In this document: one piece after another, positions 1,037 through 47,199 of the stretch | Numbering within the stretch: the stretch's first letter is position 1 | How the letters are laid out: each line of letters starts with the position of its first letter | NCBI GenBank assembly: GCA_021799485.1 | Contig: JAJZAK010000001.1 | Coordinates: 34,458 to 98,457 of the forward strand | Source: a bacterium | GTDB lineage: Bacteria > Elusimicrobiota > Elusimicrobia > UBA1565 > UBA9628 | Reading direction: 5' to 3' | DNA: 64,000 nucleotides | The notes under the pieces: generated by a model | Database searches by the model: none | What the model was told of the DNA's origin: nothing | The model's input: the letters and a program-made list of their open reading frames with translations, nothing else | Translations under genes and position numbers: made by a program

Positions 1037-1881
1037 GATTTTCTCCTCCTCGCGTCGGGTTGGGACACTTGAGAAACGACGTGTCGGGCGATCTCTCGCG
1101 CGGCCACGCGCCGCACCCTCGCGAAGCTCGGCCATGAATTGATGTCGATGATCCGAAGCGAGCCGCCCTCTTCCACCACGACGTCGCCCCCGAAGATTTC
1201 CAAGCCCAGGGAGCCCGCAGCCGCCGCCGCCATCCCCGCGAGCTCCGGGACGGAGAAGGGATGATGTCGCGCGGAACGCGAGTCGTGGTAAAACCACTCG
1301 AACCAGCGCCCAGGCCCGACGCCGTAGAATTTGACGAGGTCGCCCTCCACATGCTCCTGAAGGATAATCTCCCGTATCTCCCGCGCGGCGAAAGCGTCGC
1401 GCGCGAACTCCGCCTCCTCCAACGTGCGCACGAAAACGACGTCGCGCCCCCCCACGGCGTTGTGGACATCGCCGCGCTTGACCCAAAAGCCGTCCGGAGC
1501 GGGAAAACACGGAGGCGCCAGCGGCGAGCGCCCGGTCGGCCGGACCTCGCCGGCGGGACCGCGCACGCCGGCGGCCGCGGCCAAGCTCGCGAGCATTCGC
1601 GATCGGTAGGTTCCAAGGACGGTGTCGGGACGGTTGATCACCACGGCGCCGGGAGTTTCGTTCTTGAGCCTGACGAGCCTCGGATAGGCTTCGCACATGG
1701 GCAGAATGAGGTCCCATCCATCGAGGCTCATACCATCCGCCTCTTGAGCGGAGGCAAGCGCCATGGGAAGGCCCAGCCGCGCCAACTCTTCGGCGACAGC
1801 TCCCAAGATCCGGGCGTCGTCGGCTTCCCTATTGGGGGAATTTTCGATCTCGCGAAAAATCCCCAAGGACTTCAGGCCCAC
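1033..1881 (-). CDS. ATP-grasp family ligase (RimK / D-Ala-D-Ala-ligase-like fold)
   Basis: ORF track 282 aa. C-terminal GGDVVVEEGGSLRIIDINSWPSF resembles the ATP-grasp Mg/ATP-binding segment. Stop overlaps downstream aminotransferase start (ATGA). Confidence 0.55.
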   Translation of the reverse strand: MGLKSLGIFREIENSPNREADDARILGAVAEELARLGLPMALASAQEADGMSLDGWDLILPMCEAYPRLVRLKNETPGAVVINRPDTVLGTYRSRMLASLAAAAGVRGPAGEVRPTGRSPLAPPCFPAPDGFWVKRGDVHNAVGGRDVVFVRTLEEAEFARDAFAAREIREIILQEHVEGDLVKFYGVGPGRWFEWFYHDSRSARHHPFSVPELAGMAAAAAGSLGLEIFGGDVVVEEGGSLRIIDINSWPSFARVRRVAAREIARHVVSQVSQPDARRRKS

Positions 1882-2606: not shown

Positions 2607-3265
2607 AGAAGAGCCTCCAAATCGATAACGCTGCGGGCGCGCAATCCCCGGCCGCAGCAAGCCGCGCGGCCGGAGCCAAGCAGCACATGCCTCAAACCCA
2701 GCGCCTCCGCCCCCTTCATGTCGCGCTCGACGGAATCGCCGATCATGGTGGCCGAGCCCGGCTCGCCGCCCAGCGTCGAGAGAGCCTCGATGAAAATAGC
2801 CGACTCGGGCTTCTTCACCCCGAGCGCTCCTGAGTCGGCGACTGTCTTGAAAAATCCAAGCATGCCCTCGGAGGCGAGAGCCGATCGGAGATTCCCGTAA
2901 AAATTGGACACGACGCCCAAGCACCTCCGGGAGGCGAGTCTTGAAAGCGCGGGTTTGAGCGCCTCGAAATGCCTCCGGCTCTGCCGCAGGAAGCCGCCCG
3001 CGACTTGGTCACGGATAGCCCGAATTCCCTGGCGGCCAAGATTCCCCCCTAAGCGCTCCAGCACTCCGCCCACCTGCAGGCGGACAGTTTCCTCCATGGA
3101 CGCGTCACGCAAGGAAAGAGAATCGTCCGAGGCGTAGAAGGCCTTGCGGAAATCGTCGCGGGAAACCTGGATGCCCGCATCCAGATAAAGGGGATAAAAT
3201 CGTTCCTGCCAAGTGATGCCGTCCGCATCCAGGGTGCCGCCGAAATCAAAAAGCAACACATCCAT
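2603..3265 (-). CDS. HAD-superfamily hydrolase (phosphatase-like)
   Basis: ORF 220 aa begins MDVLLFDFGGTLDAD (HAD motif I DxDGT-like) and has GDSVERDMKGAEALGLRHVLL (motif IV). First gene of a four-gene minus-strand operon. Confidence 0.65.
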   Translation of the reverse strand: MDVLLFDFGGTLDADGITWQERFYPLYLDAGIQVSRDDFRKAFYASDDSLSLRDASMEETVRLQVGGVLERLGGNLGRQGIRAIRDQVAGGFLRQSRRHFEALKPALSRLASRRCLGVVSNFYGNLRSALASEGMLGFFKTVADSGALGVKKPESAIFIEALSTLGGEPGSATMIGDSVERDMKGAEALGLRHVLLGSGRAACCGRGLRARSVIDLEALL

Positions 3266-4946: not shown

Positions 4947-6208
4947 ACAGATACCAGCTGACGAGCTTGGCGGGGACCTTTGTTCTGGCGGGGGTGGCCT
5001 GGGCCTTCTCGAAAAAACGGTCGAGGGTCAAGCCGCAGACGATCCTCTGGTCTCTTCTCCTGCAGTTCGCCTTCGCCTTCCTCATCATGAAAACCTCCGC
5101 CGGGGAGCGCTCCTTCTCGGCGGTCAACAAGGCCTGCGCGCACCTGCTCGCCTTCGAGGAGGAGGGGGCGCGATTCGTCTTCGGGACGCTCGCTCTCTCC
5201 CCGGGCGAATCCGGCTCCACGGGCTTTTACTTCGCCTTCCAGGTTCTCCCCACCATCATCTTCCTATCGAGCCTCATGTCGCTCCTCTATTATCTGGGCG
5301 TCATGCAGAAGATCGTCCAGGGCTTCGCCTGGATCATGGCGCGAACCTGCAGGACCTCGGGGGCCGAGTCCCTGTCCATTTCGGCCAATATCTTCATGGG
5401 CCAGACCGAGGCGCCGCTCCTCATCCGTCCCTACATCGAATCCTTGACCGAATCCGAGCTTTTCTGCGTCATGGTGGGCGGCATGGCCCACATCGCGGCC
5501 GGCATCATGATCGCCTACGTCGGGATGCTCTCCTCTTATTTCCCGGACATCGCGGGCCATCTCCTCGCCGCCCAGGTGATGGCGACGCCGGCGACCATCC
5601 TCATCGCCAAGCTCCTCATCCCCGAGGCCGGGGCCCCCAAGACGATGGGAAGCGTGAGGATCGGATATCATGAGGAAAGCACGAACGCCATCGAAGCCGC
5701 CGCGGCCGGTGGCTCCCTGGGCATGACCTTGGCCCTCAACGTCGCGGCCATGCTGGTGGCCTTCATGTCGATCATCGCGCTGATTAACTGGGGACTCCAT
5801 CATCTCCTCGGTCTTTTCGGACACGGCGAGATCGGCCTCGAAACGCTGCTCGGCTGGATTTTCGCGCCGGTCGCCTGGGTCCTGGGCGTACCGTGGTCCG
5901 ACTGTCTCCAAGTCGGACAATGGATGGGCGAGAAGACGGCCTTTAATGAGTTCATCGCGTATTCTGAAATGGCCCGCTACGCGGCGACCCACGGCGCCCA
6001 AGCCATCTCCCACCGGGCCTACGTGATCGCCGCCCACGCCCTTTGCGGCTTTTCCAACTTCCTTTCGATCGGCATCCAAATCGGCGGCATCGGCCCGATG
6101 GCGCCCACCCGGCGCAAGGACCTGGCGAGGCTCGGGCTCCTGGCTCTTCTCGGGGGATCGCTCGCTTGCTTCATGACGGCAAGCATCACCGGAATTCTCA
6201 TCCCCTAG
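4943..6208 (+). CDS. nupC: concentrative nucleoside transporter, NupC/CNT family
   Basis: Start MNRYQLTSLAGTFVLAG at ATG 4943 (ATGA overlap with permease stop). NupC-like segments LLQFAFAFLIMKTSAGERSF and SISANIFMGQTEAPLLIRPYI. Confidence 0.75.
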   Translation: MNRYQLTSLAGTFVLAGVAWAFSKKRSRVKPQTILWSLLLQFAFAFLIMKTSAGERSFSAVNKACAHLLAFEEEGARFVFGTLALSPGESGSTGFYFAFQVLPTIIFLSSLMSLLYYLGVMQKIVQGFAWIMARTCRTSGAESLSISANIFMGQTEAPLLIRPYIESLTESELFCVMVGGMAHIAAGIMIAYVGMLSSYFPDIAGHLLAAQVMATPATILIAKLLIPEAGAPKTMGSVRIGYHEESTNAIEAAAAGGSLGMTLALNVAAMLVAFMSIIALINWGLHHLLGLFGHGEIGLETLLGWIFAPVAWVLGVPWSDCLQVGQWMGEKTAFNEFIAYSEMARYAATHGAQAISHRAYVIAAHALCGFSNFLSIGIQIGGIGPMAPTRRKDLARLGLLALLGGSLACFMTASITGILIP

Positions 6209-15287: not shown

Positions 15288-15937
15288 ACCACGGCAGGAT
15301 CGGAGGCCTCACGGGCTCCTCGCTCGCTCAGTTCGACGATTCCTATCGCGCTGCCAGCGGAGAACCTTTCCTCATCGGCGTTGACGAAGCCGGCCGAGGC
15401 CCCTTGGCGGGACCCGTCGTCGCCGCGGCCGTGCGGCTCTCCAAGGATCAGATCGGTCCCTTGGCGTGGGCCCGGGACTCCAAGAAACTCTCCGCGGCCC
15501 GACGCGAACGACTCTATGCGCTGATCCGCGAGCACGCCGACGCGGTGAGCGTCGCCTGGGCCCATCCCGACCGCATCGACCGAGACAACATCCTGCAGGC
15601 CTCCTTGGCCGCCATGGCCCGCGCCGCGCGGCGCGCGTCGGGAAAAGGCCCCGCCCTCCTCCTCGTGGACGGCCCCTTTCCCGTCCCCGGCCTTCCCCAC
15701 GGGCTGCGCCAGAAACCTCTTATTAAAGGAGACGACCGCTCTCTTGCCGTCGCCTGCGCAAGCATCGTCGCCAAGGTCGTTCGCGACCGTTGGATGCGGC
15801 GGCTCTCCCGGCGCTATCCCGGTTTCGGCTTCGAACGTCATAAGGGCTATCCGACGGCGGACCATTTGACGGCCCTGCGCGCGCTGGGCCCCAGCAAGGC
15901 CCACCGCCGAAGCTTCGCGCCCGTCCGAGAGGCCTAG
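15284..15937 (+). CDS. rnhB: ribonuclease HII; start codon uncertain (catalytic motif lies upstream of first ATG/GTG/TTG)
   Basis: ORF track begins at TTG 15404, but the in-frame upstream sequence encodes ...[24 protein letters not shown], the catalytic RNase HII N-terminal motif. The only in-frame candidate start found is CTG 15284, overlapping the rplS stop as CTGA. Confidence 0.8.
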
Positions 15938-16201
15938 TGTAGTGAGTCCATGATATCTTTACAATTGCTGGGCCTATTTGGACCGGATTCAAGGCGCGAG
16001 GAGCGAGCATACTGAATGTATATGAGCGACGAGCAACGCGGAAGCCGGGCGAAAGAGGCCCAGCCCGCAGCGGGAAGGCCCATTTCGGGGCCATCGCGGC
16101 GTTGCTCCTCGGTTACAGGCCTCGGCCTGCGCCCTCGTCGCGTCTTGCGCTGGCTCCCAACCTGGGCCTTCAATTGTAAAGATATCATGGACTCACTACA
16201 C
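15937..16201. repeat. structured intergenic element copy A: 31-bp perfect terminal inverted repeat closing an about 200-bp GC-rich core; paralog of element at 46000-46221
   Basis: Left arm gtgtagtgagtccatgatatctttacaattg (15937-15967) is the exact reverse complement of caattgtaaagatatcatggactcactacac (16171-16201). Core ccggattcaaggcgcgaggagcgagcatac...gagcgacgagcaacgc...cccgcagcggg is about 80 % identical to the core of copy B. Fills exactly the rnhB-stop to yraN-start gap. Confidence 0.7.
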
Positions 16202-16204
16202 TAG

Positions 16205-23821: not shown

Positions 23822-23900
23822 GGTGGCTGTAGCTCAGCCCGGTTAGAGCGTTCGGCTGTGAACCGAAAGGCCGCGGGTTCAAATCCCGTCAGCCACCCCA
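23822..23900 (+). tRNA. tRNA-His (anticodon GTG) with encoded G-1 and CCA
   Basis: gGTGGCTGTAGCTCAGCCCGGTTAGAGCGTTCGGCTGTGAACCGAAAGGCCGCGGGTTCAAATCCCGTCAGCCACCCCA. 7-bp acceptor GTGGCTG/CAGCCAC, anticodon loop CTGTGAA, T-loop GGTTCAAATCC, extra 5' G typical of tRNA-His, discriminator C. Confidence 0.9.
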
Positions 23901-29241: not shown

Positions 29242-29600
29242 TGGTGGAGGTGGCGGGAATTGCACCCGCGTCCAAACGCTTCGAACCTCGGTCCCTACAG
29301 GCTTAGCCCGCCGTTCAAGATTCGCCCGGGGAAAGCCGGCGGACGGGTTGCCCCCGAACTATCCGCGGATGGTCTTAAGGGCCGGACGCCGCGGAGCCGC
29401 CCGGACCCAGCATCCTGCTTCATGACGGTCCGGCCCCCTAGCAGGAGTCCGGGCGGACCGTGAGCTTACCGCTGTTTAGGCGGTGGCCCAGGCCAACGAT
29501 GAGTTGGCGTTTGTGTTTTGGCCTGATTTTATCCTGGCTCTGGCCAACCAGGGCCTGCGACCGGGGGCCCGAGAACGCCTGTCGAGCCTAATTCACCCCC
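29242..29600 (-). ncRNA. ssrA: tmRNA (SsrA), about 359 nt
   Basis: Minus-strand RNA 5'-GGGGGUGAAUUAGGCUCGACAGG...GGACGCGGGUGCAAUUCCCGCCACCUCCACCA-3'. 3' tRNA-like end nearly identical to the E. coli tmRNA 3' end (GGACGCGGGUUCAACUCCCGCCAGCUCCACCA). 5' GGGGGUG pairs with CACCUCC including the G3:U wobble. Putative tag ORF ...GCC AAC UCA UCG UUG GCC UGG GCC ACC GCC UAA giving (A)NSSLAWATA. Confidence 0.8.
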
Positions 29601-45277: not shown

Positions 45278-45993
45278 AGCTCGAGGCGAAGGGGCTGCGC
45301 AAGTTCTACGGCAAGCGCGAGGTGGTCAAGGGCATCAGCCTCTCCGTCTCCTCGGGCGAGATCGTGGGGCTTCTCGGACCCAACGGCGCCGGGAAGACGA
45401 CGACGTTCTACAGCTTGGCGGGCTTCATTCGCCCCGACGGCGGCGCGATCCTCATGGACGCCGACGAGGTGACCGCGCTCCCCATGTATGAACGGGCACG
45501 CCGGGGGCTTGGGTACCTGGCGCAGGAGCCGACCGTCTTTAGGGGATTGACGGTCGAGGAGAACCTCCGCGCGATTCTCGAGCGGACGGTCAAGAACCGC
45601 TTCGAGCGGATGCGCCGCGTCAAGGCGCTGCTCGACGAGTTCGGGCTCTGGAAGCTGAGGCGGCAGATCGCGCTGAGGCTGTCCGGCGGCGAGAAAAGGC
45701 GCCTCGAATGCGCCCGCGCCATGATCAACGAGCCCAAGCTGATCATGCTCGACGAGCCTTTCGTCGGGATCGATCCCATCACCGTCTCCGATCTGAAGGG
45801 CTTGATCCAAAAGCTCCGCGATCAGGGGATCGGGGTCCTCATCACCGACCACAACGTCCGGGAAGCCCTTCCGATCTTGGACCGCGCCTATCTGATCTAC
45901 GACGGGCAGATCCTCATCGCGGGAACGGCGAAGCAGCTCTTGGATGATCCGAAAGCCCGGGAACTCTACCTTGGGAAGGACTTCACCATTTAG
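45274..45993 (+). CDS. lptB: LPS export ABC transporter ATP-binding protein
   Basis: Walker A GPNGAGKTT, signature LSGGEKRRLE, Walker B IMLDEPF, and LptB-type C-terminus. Confidence 0.85.
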   Translation: MKLEAKGLRKFYGKREVVKGISLSVSSGEIVGLLGPNGAGKTTTFYSLAGFIRPDGGAILMDADEVTALPMYERARRGLGYLAQEPTVFRGLTVEENLRAILERTVKNRFERMRRVKALLDEFGLWKLRRQIALRLSGGEKRRLECARAMINEPKLIMLDEPFVGIDPITVSDLKGLIQKLRDQGIGVLITDHNVREALPILDRAYLIYDGQILIAGTAKQLLDDPKARELYLGKDFTI

Positions 45994-45999
45994 GCGTTA

Positions 46000-46221
46000 G
46001 GCTCCGTGACAGAATAATATGGACATTTGGAGGCCCCTATCCGAGCCGGATGCAAGGCGCGAGAAGCGAGCATACCGAGCGTATGGGAGCGATCGAGCAA
46101 CGCCGCAGGCGACCGGAGAGGGGCCTCCCGCAGCGGGCCGTCCGCTTTCGGTCTGCGACGTCGTTGCGCTCGCCTCGAAACTCGGATGGCCAAATCGTCC
46201 ATATTATTCTGTCACGGAGCC
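46000..46221. repeat. structured intergenic element copy B: 25-bp perfect terminal inverted repeat closing a GC-rich core homologous to copy A (15937-16201)
   Basis: ggctccgtgacagaataatatggac (46000-46024) is the exact reverse complement of gtccatattattctgtcacggagcc (46197-46221). Core ccggatgcaaggcgcgagaagcgagcatac...gagcgatcgagcaacgc...cccgcagcggg. Lies exactly between lptB stop (45993) and the convergent TPR gene stop (46222). Confidence 0.7.
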
Positions 46222-47199
46222 TTACGTGAACGACTCGATCGGCGTCAGGATGCCGGCCTTCCTTGAAACGCGAACCGCTCGTTCGTAGCGGGCCAATCCC
46301 TCGACCCTTCTTCCAGCCAAGTACCTCAAGGACGCCAGCGCCATGAGCGCGAGGACCTCCCCGCGGGTTTCCCGCGCTTTTTTGAACGCCGCCAAAGCTC
46401 TCAAGAAAAGCGGCTCGGCCAGCGCGGGGCGTCCCGAACGCCATTCGACCTGGCCAAGCCCCCAATTCACGTAGGCGCCGTCGACTTCGTCGCCAAGCTT
46501 CCGATAGAGGCGACCGGAAGACCGGTAATGGCGCCGTGCCTCGCCAAGCCGCCCCATCTGCCTGAGGGCGTTGGCCAGACCGCAATGGGAGTAAGCAAGG
46601 CCGAAAAGGTCCCCGTCCGCCCGCGCTTGGGAGAGCACGGACGCATAAAGGCGCCTCGATCCCTCCACGTCGCCGCGGATGCGCTTGAGCCCCGCGAGTC
46701 CCAAAACGGAATAACGCGCGCCGGAGGAATCGCGAGCTCGACGAAAAGACGCGAGAGACCTCTCAAAAGCCTCTTCCGCGGCCGCGAGCTTTCCGGAGAA
46801 CCGAAGAGCGCCTCCCATCGCCCACCAAACGAAGCCGACTCCCTCCCAGTCCTCGCGCCGTTGAAAAAGAGCGAGAAAAGCCTTGAGCCGGCGGAGGCTC
46901 TCGGCGTAGCGCCCCTCGGCCCGAAGGAGCATCGCCTCCTCGAGGCGGAGGAGCTCGATCTCCTCGGCGGCGCCCAAGCTCCGCGCCAGACGCAGCCCTC
47001 GTCGGATGTGGGCGCGCGAACGCGAGGCGAAACCGAGGCTTCTATTGATAGCGGCCAGGGCGCCATGCGCCTTGAGCCTGTCTTCCGCAACCGCGGCGCG
47101 CCGCCTCAAGACACGATTAAAGACGACCGCCGCCCGGGCCAGACGCCCCTCGCTCCTCAAGGCCTCCGCCCTTTCCAATAGGGATTCCATGCCAGCCAA
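46222..47199 (-). CDS. tetratricopeptide-repeat (TPR) protein
   Basis: Multiple 34-aa TPR-like units (…AEALRSEGRLARAAVVFNRVL…, …YAESLRRLKAFLALF…). Confidence 0.6.
   Translation of the reverse strand: MAGMESLLERAEALRSEGRLARAAVVFNRVLRRRAAVAEDRLKAHGALAAINRSLGFASRSRAHIRRGLRLARSLGAAEEIELLRLEEAMLLRAEGRYAESLRRLKAFLALFQRREDWEGVGFVWWAMGGALRFSGKLAAAEEAFERSLASFRRARDSSGARYSVLGLAGLKRIRGDVEGSRRLYASVLSQARADGDLFGLAYSHCGLANALRQMGRLGEARRHYRSSGRLYRKLGDEVDGAYVNWGLGQVEWRSGRPALAEPLFLRALAAFKKARETRGEVLALMALASLRYLAGRRVEGLARYERAVRVSRKAGILTPIESFT

Follow-up and report, generated by a model that had tools for sequence, protein, structure and literature searches.

The DNA analysed here (the window) is a stretch of 64,000 nucleotides from an Elusimicrobiota genome assembly, GCA_021799485.1, and it carries two inverted-repeat elements, each of which fills its intergenic gap to the nucleotide. 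The first, copy A, lies between rnhB (ORF 15404-15937, which matches RNase_HII) and yraN, which matches UPF0102. The second, copy B, lies between the stop codons of lptB, which matches ABC_tran (LptB), and of a gene with TPR matches. A sequence-only reading of the window had described two intergenic elements in these gene contexts, and our searches recovered their positions, the neighbouring genes, the exact filling of both gaps, and perfect inverted repeats of 31 nt in copy A and 25 nt in copy B. The parts of copy A are listed here in window coordinates.

15934..15937, no strand: left CTAG of copy A, with TA at 15935-15936; the duplicated target is TA, or CTAG if it is 4 bp long
15937..16201, plus strand: copy A, a probable MITE of 265 bp, long type with two modules, from the rnhB stop codon to the yraN start codon
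15937..15967, plus strand: left terminal inverted repeat (TIR) of copy A, type A, GTGTAGTGAGTCCATGATATC...
15981..16050, plus strand: module M1 of copy A (covariance model, CM, R1: 75.6 bits, E = 1.1e-17)
16064..16074, plus strand: small central hairpin CCCGCAGCGGG of copy A, between M1 and M2
16088..16156, minus strand: module M2 of copy A, an inverted second core with its purine strand on minus (CM R1 48.0 bits, E = 2.7e-10)
16171..16201, minus strand: right TIR of copy A
16201..16204, no strand: right CTAG of copy A, with TA at 16202-16203; the yraN ATG (16205) follows directly

Copy B is shorter, and its parts are given in the same way.

45997..45999, no strand: left TTA duplication of copy B, preceded by the 7-nt duplicate TTAGGCG (45990-45996)
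46000..46221, plus strand: copy B, a probable MITE of 222 bp with one intact module and a remnant, between the stops of lptB (plus strand) and the TPR gene (minus strand)
46000..46024, plus strand: left TIR of copy B, type B, GGCTCCGTGACAGAATAATATGGAC
46044..46114, plus strand: module M1 of copy B (CM R1 61.2 bits, E = 8.2e-14)
46160..46177, minus strand: second-module remnant GTCGTTGCGCTCGCCTCG of copy B, degenerate and with the rest deleted, aligned with long elements
46197..46221, minus strand: right TIR of copy B
46222..46224, no strand: right TTA duplication of copy B; on the minus strand it is the TAA stop of the TPR gene

When extended beyond their perfect portions, the TIRs of copy A reach 48 nt at 88% complementarity and those of copy B reach 30 nt at 97%. 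The core that the two copies have in common, which had been noticed from the letters alone, is about 70 nt long and is non-random, as the window contains CAAGGCGCGAGnAGCGAGCATAC exactly two times while the expectation from 100 shuffles is 0, and M1 of both copies matches the same covariance model. The small hairpin CCCGCAGCGGG had likewise been assigned to both copies and is present in both, at 46127-46137 in copy B; other long elements have a CCC-loop-GGG at the place where copy A has CCCGCAGCGGG. The two modules of copy A are mutually inverted, each reading inward from its own end, and long MITEs including copy A follow the order TIR-M1-centre-M2(inverted)-TIR. The remnant at 46160-46177 of copy B gave no CM hit. 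A small ORF (16016-16204) lies inside copy A, and its ATG is not conserved, since the related locus L103 has GTG there.

Both copies are mobile elements with TIRs and target-site duplications. Copy A is flanked by CTAG on both sides and copy B by TTA on both sides; because CTAG is palindromic, the length of the duplication at copy A is ambiguous between TA and CTAG. The two orthologous sites are empty in GCA_027327915.1. There, rnhB continues through gcgTAAATGccg into yraN without an element, the genes abutting (L097; YraN 86% identical), and lptB continues through ccaTTTAGgtgaa into the TPR gene without an element, the genes overlapping (L228; LptB 95% identical). In a more distant relative (L099), rnhB and yraN overlap. 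Comparison with L228 shows 7 nt extra at the left junction of copy B, and the lptB stop TAG (45991-45993) falls within the TTAGGCG duplicate there, just as the TAG at 15935-15937 beside copy A is the rnhB stop codon. Each gap is filled exactly because there was no gap before insertion, and the duplicated target restores the stop codons. Insertion would occur at TA-containing targets (CTAG, TTA/TAA) with duplication of 2-4 bp, and movement would probably be by cut-and-paste with the transposase supplied in trans. The elements land on stop codons because a genome of about 65% G+C concentrates its TA sites there and because insertion at these sites does the least harm. The window holds one copy per subfamily (one type A and one type B), and contigs of the window species break inside copy A. 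No transposase had been seen near either copy, and tblastn with IS630 and IS1182 transposases found nothing in the window.

Further copies, which the sequence-only reading had suggested looking for, proved plentiful. More than 200 relatives were found; they come from MAGs of Vicinamibacterales/Acidobacteriota, Elusimicrobiota, Desulfobacterales, Myxococcales, Verrucomicrobiota, and Desantisbacteria and from JGI metagenome contigs. A scan of genome contigs with a 19-mer of the core gave 96 stretches, and a pattern that left the apex free was found in at least 120 metagenome contigs. The relatives measure 150-175 bp or 270-320 bp and have TIRs flanked by TTA/TAA/CTA or CTAG, the duplication being 3 bp (TTA/TAA/CTA) in several subfamilies. 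Copy numbers in related MAGs reach 6-12 or more per genome. Genomes with many copies of one TIR include Vicinamibacterales MFD04651, Desulfobacterales MFD10306, and Myxococcales CG_2015-01_69_45, and copies are frequently found at contig ends. Within a subfamily the TIRs of one genome are nearly identical, which the sequence-only reading had itself named as the sign of a mobile element as opposed to an RNA gene. The elements are enriched between convergent genes. No neighbouring protein family recurs around 183 loci, and no orientation bias relative to the flanking genes was seen (9 vs 8 among short elements). BLASTN of copy A and one short relative against PLSDB plasmids gave no match, nor did a scan of IMG/VR with the core 19-mer.

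The closing stems of A and B had been called completely different. They do differ, because the copies belong to different TIR subfamilies, but they are not unrelated: the subfamilies belong to one superfamily, and a TA-G.G..C.GT....AATAA-like pattern runs across all TIR classes seen. An autonomous relative is present at locus L176 (1073-2809). It is 1737 bp long and CTAG-flanked, with 38-nt TIRs, modules at 1121-1191 (plus strand) and 2692-2762 (minus strand), and a 460-aa ORF between them. The ORF (L176:1273-2655) matches the NCBIfam model NF033551 (IS1182 family) at 400.5 bits, the cutoff being 270, and also matches DUF772, DDE_Tnp_1, and DDE_Tnp_1_6. The resulting architecture, TIR-module-ORF-inverted module-TIR, is that of the long MITEs, and an element of the L176 type is reproduced in two independent assemblies (L242 and L243). 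Four F-type MITEs (L027, L045, L053, and L069) have the same TIR as the L176 element. An IS partner with the same TIR and modules was found for the F type (L176/L242), and none was found for the exact A or B TIR types.

We read copies A and B as MITEs, that is, gene-less non-autonomous derivatives of an IS1182-family (IS5-related, DDE) insertion sequence, and put the probability of this reading at roughly 0.88. The MITEs would have arisen from such an IS by internal deletion, and the core of about 70 nt would be a subterminal module inherited from the parent, which would have carried one module about 48 nt inside each end, the two inverted and with the purine-rich strand always facing inward. 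IS1182-type transposases probably mobilise both the type A and the type B subfamilies. The L176-type IS may be the source of the MITEs or may have acquired their ends. Four related IS1182 elements (L233, L234, L235, and L239; 63-82% amino acid identity), three of which have the same TIR type (CTAG|GAGCC), gave no module CM hit with filters off, and the module is therefore not generally required by this transposase clade. As in known IS1182 insertion sequences and their MITEs, the family described here has TIRs of 25-38 nt, duplications of 2-4 bp, many small gene-less copies, and an autonomous relative whose DDE transposase has DUF772 + DDE_Tnp_1 + DDE_Tnp_1_6. Among the known MITEs, those derived from ISMac2 in Methanosarcina acetivorans are 160 bp long with inverted repeats of 26 and direct repeats of 4 (PMC3852290). 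Unlike those systems, the elements here have a conserved GA-rich hairpin module inside each end, and their hosts are uncultivated Elusimicrobiota, Acidobacteriota, Desulfobacterales, Myxococcales, and Verrucomicrobiota.

The module is a strand-specific, structure-constrained hairpin. Its fold is a rod below a variable apical hairpin, with covarying Watson-Crick pairs set between three tandem G·A/A·G mismatches. M1 of copy A, which is GA-rich, shows the three tandem G·A/A·G pairs together with an AAC bulge, and its apical hairpin is CAUAC/GUAU(A). Across the alignment, 86.8% of cells are paired, compared with about 25-40% in slid controls, and double-change cells number 65 against 22 in shuffles, a value that 0 of 500 shuffles reached. 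At least 10 different apical stems occur, all of them complementary. Compensatory swaps are visible even within copy A, where M2 differs from M1 in having C-G at pair 20:50 and GG/CC at pairs 23-24:46-47. Among 28 modules that were not pattern-selected, the GA dinucleotides are kept in 21-28 (one of the six positions being G or A), pair 20:50 is G-C in 15 or C-G in 10, and both the AAC bulge and the G·U are conserved. That G·U, at 27:43, is present in 23 of 30 sequences (A2), and G and U are the commonest bases there in unbiased modules. The sequence-only reading had taken a conserved core with a variable closing stem for the covariation of a structured RNA. The core hairpin does show compensatory changes, but the variation of the stem reflects the TIR subfamilies.

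The strands of the module are also unequal in their mismatches. On the module strand, G·T outnumbers A·C in the inner stems by 26 to 2, many of these positions being inherited and not independent, and the two are at 20 and 13 in the outer 32 nt, which contain the TIRs. We considered this asymmetry as proof of RNA and rejected it as such, as it is suggestive but dominated by inherited positions. A k-turn was also considered. Like k-turns and loop E-like rods, which are built on tandem sheared G·A pairs, the module has 5'-GA/3'-AG doublets, covarying flanking pairs, and a 3-nt bulge. The AAC bulge here, however, has Watson-Crick pairs (GC and GCC) on both sides and does not stand beside a G·A doublet, three doublets occur in a row, and no Rfam family corresponds; the k-turn was rejected on its geometry.

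Since the compensatory changes are real, the transposon could carry a functional RNA or ssDNA module. We put forward the tentative proposal, placed a little short of even odds, that the GA-rod hairpin has a function in single-stranded form (RNA or ssDNA) at the transposon end and has not been described before; the proposal includes near base-for-base conservation of the module in IS1182-type elements and MITEs of at least five phyla while the TIRs diverge. No description of a GA-rich hairpin module was found in the literature on MITEs, IS630, IS1182, or tandem GA, and a full-text search for the core sequence returned unrelated matches only. We infer a cis role for the module in the transposon, with an RNA leader or insulator transcribed inward as its likeliest form, and not a role as an RNA that serves the host.

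The possibility that the module acts as RNA, that is, as a 5' leader or insulator through which transposase expression is controlled or the ends are protected against impinging transcription, is a conjecture that we hold with distinctly less than even confidence. In the IS and in the long MITEs the purine strand faces inward at either end, and the left module of L176, which is in the sense orientation, is followed after 82 nt by the transposase ATG. The transposase 5' UTR would contain the module in sense and the 3' end would contain it in antisense, and inward transcription could start from a promoter embedded in the TIR or come from read-through of a flanking gene, with the MITEs keeping the module as inherited baggage. 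Tandem sheared G·A pairs are typical of RNA motifs, and their presence along with the conserved G·U at 27:43 and the excess of G·T over A·C in the inner stems is consistent with RNA. The sequence-only reading had pointed to extended -10 motifs in the AT-rich arms, but a consensus scan of copy A found no sigma-70-like promoter, which leaves these motifs unsupported as canonical promoters, and this counts against the RNA, as do the lack of orientation preference of short MITEs relative to flanking genes and the close IS1182 relatives that do without the module.

Alternatively, the module may act as DNA in transposition, as a subterminal enhancer, an extruded ssDNA hairpin, or an array of GAGCGA-like direct repeats, which we regard as possible but somewhat unlikely. 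Binding of the transposase or a host factor to the module would help to bring the ends of very short elements into synapsis. Transposon ends often contain subterminal binding sites and sites for host factors. One such host-factor site is the IHF site of Correia elements (PMC2229807). The symmetric placement of the module about 48 nt inside both ends agrees with a role in DNA, as does its persistence in MITE subfamilies of at least five phyla whose TIRs and stems have diverged, and its orientation is independent of host transcription. The compensatory changes at the apex and the G-C to C-G swap, however, favour a folded single strand over recognition of a duplex, and a cruciform is disfavoured because the complementary strand would carry C·T mismatches. 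The sister IS1182 elements without a module speak against DNA as they do against RNA.

A separate question concerns the enzyme that moves copy A. About 30 nt of the copy A TIR can be aligned with the ends of an IS of the IS630 family at locus L054 (NF033545, 279.5 bits), so an IS630-type enzyme might mobilise the type A subfamily. The L054 element ends in CTAG|TGTAGTGTCCC, and the type A TIR of L058 is identical to this end over 15 of 15 nt. The classical IS630 signature is a CTAG target with a TA duplication, and copy A has CTAG flanks in which the duplication may be TA or CTAG. We nevertheless consider it unlikely that an IS630/Tc1-mariner-family transposase, and not an IS1182-type enzyme, mobilised copy A. 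The L054 element has no module, which led us to reject IS630 as the parent, and it comes from another phylum (Acidobacteriota); type A long MITEs have their full internal architecture in common with F-type MITEs and the IS1182 element, and a GTGTCC motif is common to both TIR types. Two other associations were set aside. The IS701-family IS that adjoin truncated MITEs (L010, L054) are unrelated insertion sequences inserted at the CTAG junction, and AGGCGGGATG, which short MITEs share with the IS630 5' region, is a 10-mer only and was taken as chance.

Resemblances to the IS630/Tc1-mariner MITEs (Correia of Neisseria, RUP, and Nezha) go beyond the type A TIR, which resembles an IS630 end. In those families, too, the target is TA within CTAG-like sites, the TIRs are about 26-30 nt long, and the whole element is one long hairpin that lies at gene ends and has a central functional motif. 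They differ from the present elements in that the module-bearing autonomous element here belongs to the IS1182 family and the duplication of several subfamilies is 3 bp long (TTA/TAA/CTA); Correia elements have a central IHF site where these have a structure-constrained hairpin.

The sequence-only reading had left the choice between an ncRNA and a MITE family open while leaning toward an RNA gene. The MITE has stood, on the target duplications, empty sites, many copies, and autonomous IS1182-family relative, and a novel family of stand-alone structured ncRNA genes, with a covarying closing stem and a functional core, is now very improbable. The predicted folds are very stable (z = -12.4 and -8.8), and the core has compensatory changes together with strand-specific non-Watson-Crick features, but compensatory changes fit an RNA gene and a folded transposon module alike. 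Against an RNA gene are the empty orthologous sites in a close relative, the random orientation and lack of a conserved gene neighbourhood, the target duplications of copies that are numerous and break contigs, and the transposase inside the autonomous version. The sequence-only reading had not matched the core to RNase P, SRP, 6S, or retron RNA, and a comparison with Rfam 15, at the gathering threshold for the whole window and 10 loci and at E <= 10 for copy A, agreed in giving nothing relevant; the only matches were tmRNA and tRNA elsewhere and a chance mir-207 hit. Neither a sigma-70-like promoter nor an intrinsic terminator was found in copy A by consensus scan. Least credible of all are REP/REPIN-like palindromes spread by a RAYT (HUH) transposase, or the RNA of a retron or other retroelement: like REP/BIME/REPIN sequences, the elements are long imperfect hairpins in intergenic sites at gene 3' ends, between convergent genes, with short conserved motifs and variable spacers, but REPs are tied to RAYT HUH transposases and do not have the anatomy of TIRs plus TA-type duplications that is present here, no RAYT or RT gene is associated, and the autonomous relative contains a DDE transposase.

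For annotation, these hairpins should be masked as MITEs and not entered as ncRNA genes. The MITEs account for places at which the contigs of Elusimicrobiota, Acidobacteriota, Myxococcales, and Desulfobacterales MAGs break. Where a genome is rich in G+C, transposons that target TA hit stop codons and can create new intergenic regions. Should the module prove to function as RNA or ssDNA in IS1182-type transposons, DDE transposition or its control would gain a new cis-acting component. Such a component could, for example, permit or regulate transposition or screen the element from transcription that enters from outside, and it would represent a new class of RNA or DNA motif.

Copy A (15937-16201) lies between the genes for RNase HII (rnhB) and UPF0102/YraN, and copy B (46000-46221) between those for an LptB-type ABC ATPase and a TPR protein. 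Each is closed by an inverted repeat (TIR):

15937-15967 / 16171-16201, copy A, perfect over 31 nt, extending to 48 nt at 88%
46000-46024 / 46197-46221, copy B, perfect over 25 nt, extending to 30 nt at 97%

The two elements described by the sequence-only reading are present where it placed them. Their common core, CAAGGCGCGAGnAGCGAGCATAC, has exactly two occurrences in the 64-kb window and none in 100 shuffles. Within the window each TIR was found in its own element only, and each copy folds as a long, very stable hairpin (z = -12.4 for copy A and -8.8 for copy B). By the best named homologues, the host belongs to Elusimicrobiota; G+C content is ~65%. The only Rfam gathering-threshold matches in the window are a tmRNA gene (29242-29600, minus strand, 122 bits) and a tRNA gene (23823-23897, plus strand).

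Both orthologous sites are empty in GCA_027327915.1, whose YraN and LptB are 86% and 95% identical to those of the window. There, rnhB ends in ...gcgTAA with the yraN ATG directly after it, and lptB and the TPR gene overlap within ccaTTTAGgtgaa; a more distant relative has a 4-nt overlap of rnhB and yraN. At the corresponding places the window has ggcCTAG[copy A]CTAGATG and catTTAGGCGTTA[copy B]TTAcgtgaa. Taken together, the empty sites and these junctions indicate that the intergenic regions arose through the insertions, and duplication of the TA-containing targets restores stop codons, which explains why each gap had appeared to be filled to the nucleotide. Same-species assemblies end inside copy A, as expected of a repeat. 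At the left junction of copy B (45990-46003) there is also a 7-nt tandem duplicate, TTAGGCG|TTAGGCT; set against the empty site, it resembles the footprint of an excision with later re-insertion, or else a product of slippage.

The exact 19-mer GGCGCGAGNAGCGAGCATAC, scanned against one genome per species, retrieved 96 stretches, about 90 of which are true elements, from MAGs labeled Vicinamibacterales/Acidobacteriota, Elusimicrobiota, Desulfobacterales, Myxococcales, Verrucomicrobiota/Opitutaceae, and Desantisbacteria. In several genomes there are 6-12 or more copies, with many of them at contig ends. By size there are short elements of 150-175 bp and long ones of 270-320 bp; all form long hairpins with TIRs and are bordered by short repeats that contain TA (direct TTA, TAA or CTA, or CTAG on both sides). 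TIRs are near-identical among same-subfamily copies of one genome, the pattern that the sequence-only reading had named as favoring a mobile element, and fall into at least nine classes between genomes, with a loose pattern still common to them. The closing stems of the window copies do differ, as claimed, but they appear unrelated because the copies belong to two TIR classes, types A and B. A divergent relative at L080 4177-4330, with a type B-like TIR, a strongly diverged core, a CGTAC/GTACG apical stem, and altered arms, indicates that the family reaches beyond what the exact patterns or the HMM retrieve.

Across 183 loci no recurrent neighboring protein family was found. The elements are preferentially located between convergent genes, and no orientation bias relative to co-directional flanking genes was seen (7 vs 7 in the first set; 9 vs 8 among the short elements of the larger one). 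These are non-autonomous cut-and-paste-type transposons that carry TIRs, have inserted at stop codons, and are flanked by TA-containing duplications of 2-4 bp. The novel RNA gene family toward which the sequence-only reading leaned finds no support, given MITE-type TIRs and duplications, empty sites, random orientation, and an Rfam comparison in which no family matched the elements.

In one Vicinamibacterales MAG, IS630-family and IS701-family ISs are nested exactly at MITE CTAG junctions, and the CTAG restored where a MITE ends looks like a shared hot spot for insertion:

L054, 47-1187 and 1190-2600
L010, 5365-6781
L091, L077, L096, and L016

Two half-MITEs (L010 ~5008-5093 and L054 ~2602-2684) are cut at the same apical-loop position (...GAGCGAGCATACCGGGC|), which may reflect breakage or deletion at the tip of the hairpin.

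When the fetched loci were searched for widely spaced inverted repeats, one autonomous element came up:

L176, 1073-2809, 1737 bp, CTAG flanks and 38-nt F-type TIRs
L176, 1121-1191, plus strand, left module
L176, 2692-2762, minus strand, right, inverted module

Between its modules lies a 460-aa ORF whose product is a transposase of the IS1182 family (400.5 bits on NCBIfam NF033551, cutoff 270; Pfam DUF772, DDE_Tnp_1, and DDE_Tnp_1_6). The arrangement is reproduced in two independent assemblies, one of which spans both flanks (gccgaCTAG...CTAGacgtc). The long MITEs are built in this way too, except that they lack the gene: copy A has the same part order, and the F-type MITEs L027, L045, L053, and L069 have their TIR in common with L176. 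With this transposase-bearing relative, the TIRs and duplications, the empty sites, and the multi-copy genomes, the MITE alternative is borne out; the elements are a MITE family of IS1182 type, an ordinary category already known (PMC3852290). IS1182-type DDE transposases would mobilize them in trans. A ~20-nt palindrome, CTCGTACGCGCGCGTACGAG (L176 1250-1272), overlaps a Shine-Dalgarno-like GAGGAG just upstream of the transposase ATG and is a candidate translational control hairpin; a near-identical, imperfect version occurs in module-less L233 (870-900).

In three IS1182 relatives (63-82% aa identity) with the same TIR, CTAG|GAGCC(C/T)GTCCGAG, no module was found even with covariance-model filters off. 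Within this clade the module is thus an accessory feature, and descent from L176-type ISs to MITEs or the reverse is possible. No autonomous partner was found whose TIRs match type A or type B exactly. Type A TIRs are also similar to the terminal sequences of an IS630-family IS from a Vicinamibacterales MAG (15/15 nt for L058, ~30 nt alignable for copy A; transposase NF033545, 279.5 bits). Since this IS has no module, it was rejected as the parent and is taken instead as a possible mobilizer of type A, judging from the resemblance of the ends. Inverted arrays of short tandem repeats, unrelated to the MITEs, flank 1.4-1.8 kb in L075 (6041-7485; 7-nt units GGAACTA/GGAACAC) and L051 (650-2452; CCAACTC-like units).

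The module is a ~70-nt hairpin with a variable closing helix, an AA bulge, GGC/GCC, and a 3'-strand AAC bulge, above which follow GC/GC, GA·GA, G-C, GA·GA, GC/GC, GA·GA, a G·U pair, and an apical hairpin of 5-8 bp. Long elements have a second, inverted module, of which copy B retains only a remnant:

16088-16156, minus strand, second module of copy A, 48 bits

A metagenome scan with the GA arms fixed and the apex free matched at least 120 contigs; among the matches listed were at least 10 different apical stems, always complementary, including CATAC/GTATG, CATAG/CTATG, AATAT/ATATT, TTTAG/CTAAA, GTTTGG/CCAAA, GATAGC/GCTATC, and GTGATC/GATCA. The apical stem of copy A is polymorphic between same-species samples (L103 ~25 vs window 16023), the canonical paired form being GTATGTGAGCG and that of the window GTATATGAGCG, with a C·A mismatch. 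When 30 sequences were aligned without gaps, 86.8% of cells were paired (24-41% in slid registers), and the compensatory substitutions anticipated from the sequence alone were found, with 65 double-change cells vs 22 in shuffles and the observed value reached by 0/500, counts that take in many copies related by descent, come mostly from sequences whose arms were set by search patterns, and are equally compatible with RNA and single-stranded DNA. Outside any search-pattern selection, 28 modules, mostly second modules, retained the GA dinucleotides in 21-28 cases (one of six positions being G or A) and conserved the G·U pair and AAC bulge. Pair 20:50 was G-C in 15 and C-G in 10 of these, and pairs 23-24:46-47 switched from GC/GC to GG/CC. 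Because the G-C to C-G swap keeps the local hairpin and disrupts inter-module pairing, the selected structure is the local purine-strand fold.

The module is strand-specific, running inward from either end of the element. In L176 the left module is on the sense strand and precedes the transposase start codon by 82 nt. These features weakly favor an RNA-level role in cis, in which the module would be a leader or insulator of inward transcripts. Action as DNA, in end synapsis or as a single-stranded hairpin, is nearly as likely, while service to the host in mRNAs is disfavored by the random orientation of the elements. Conservation of the module among MITE copies may be due largely to constraint on the autonomous parents and to the youth of MITE bursts. 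What remains of interest is an undescribed, structure-constrained GA-rich hairpin module common to these transposons across phyla.
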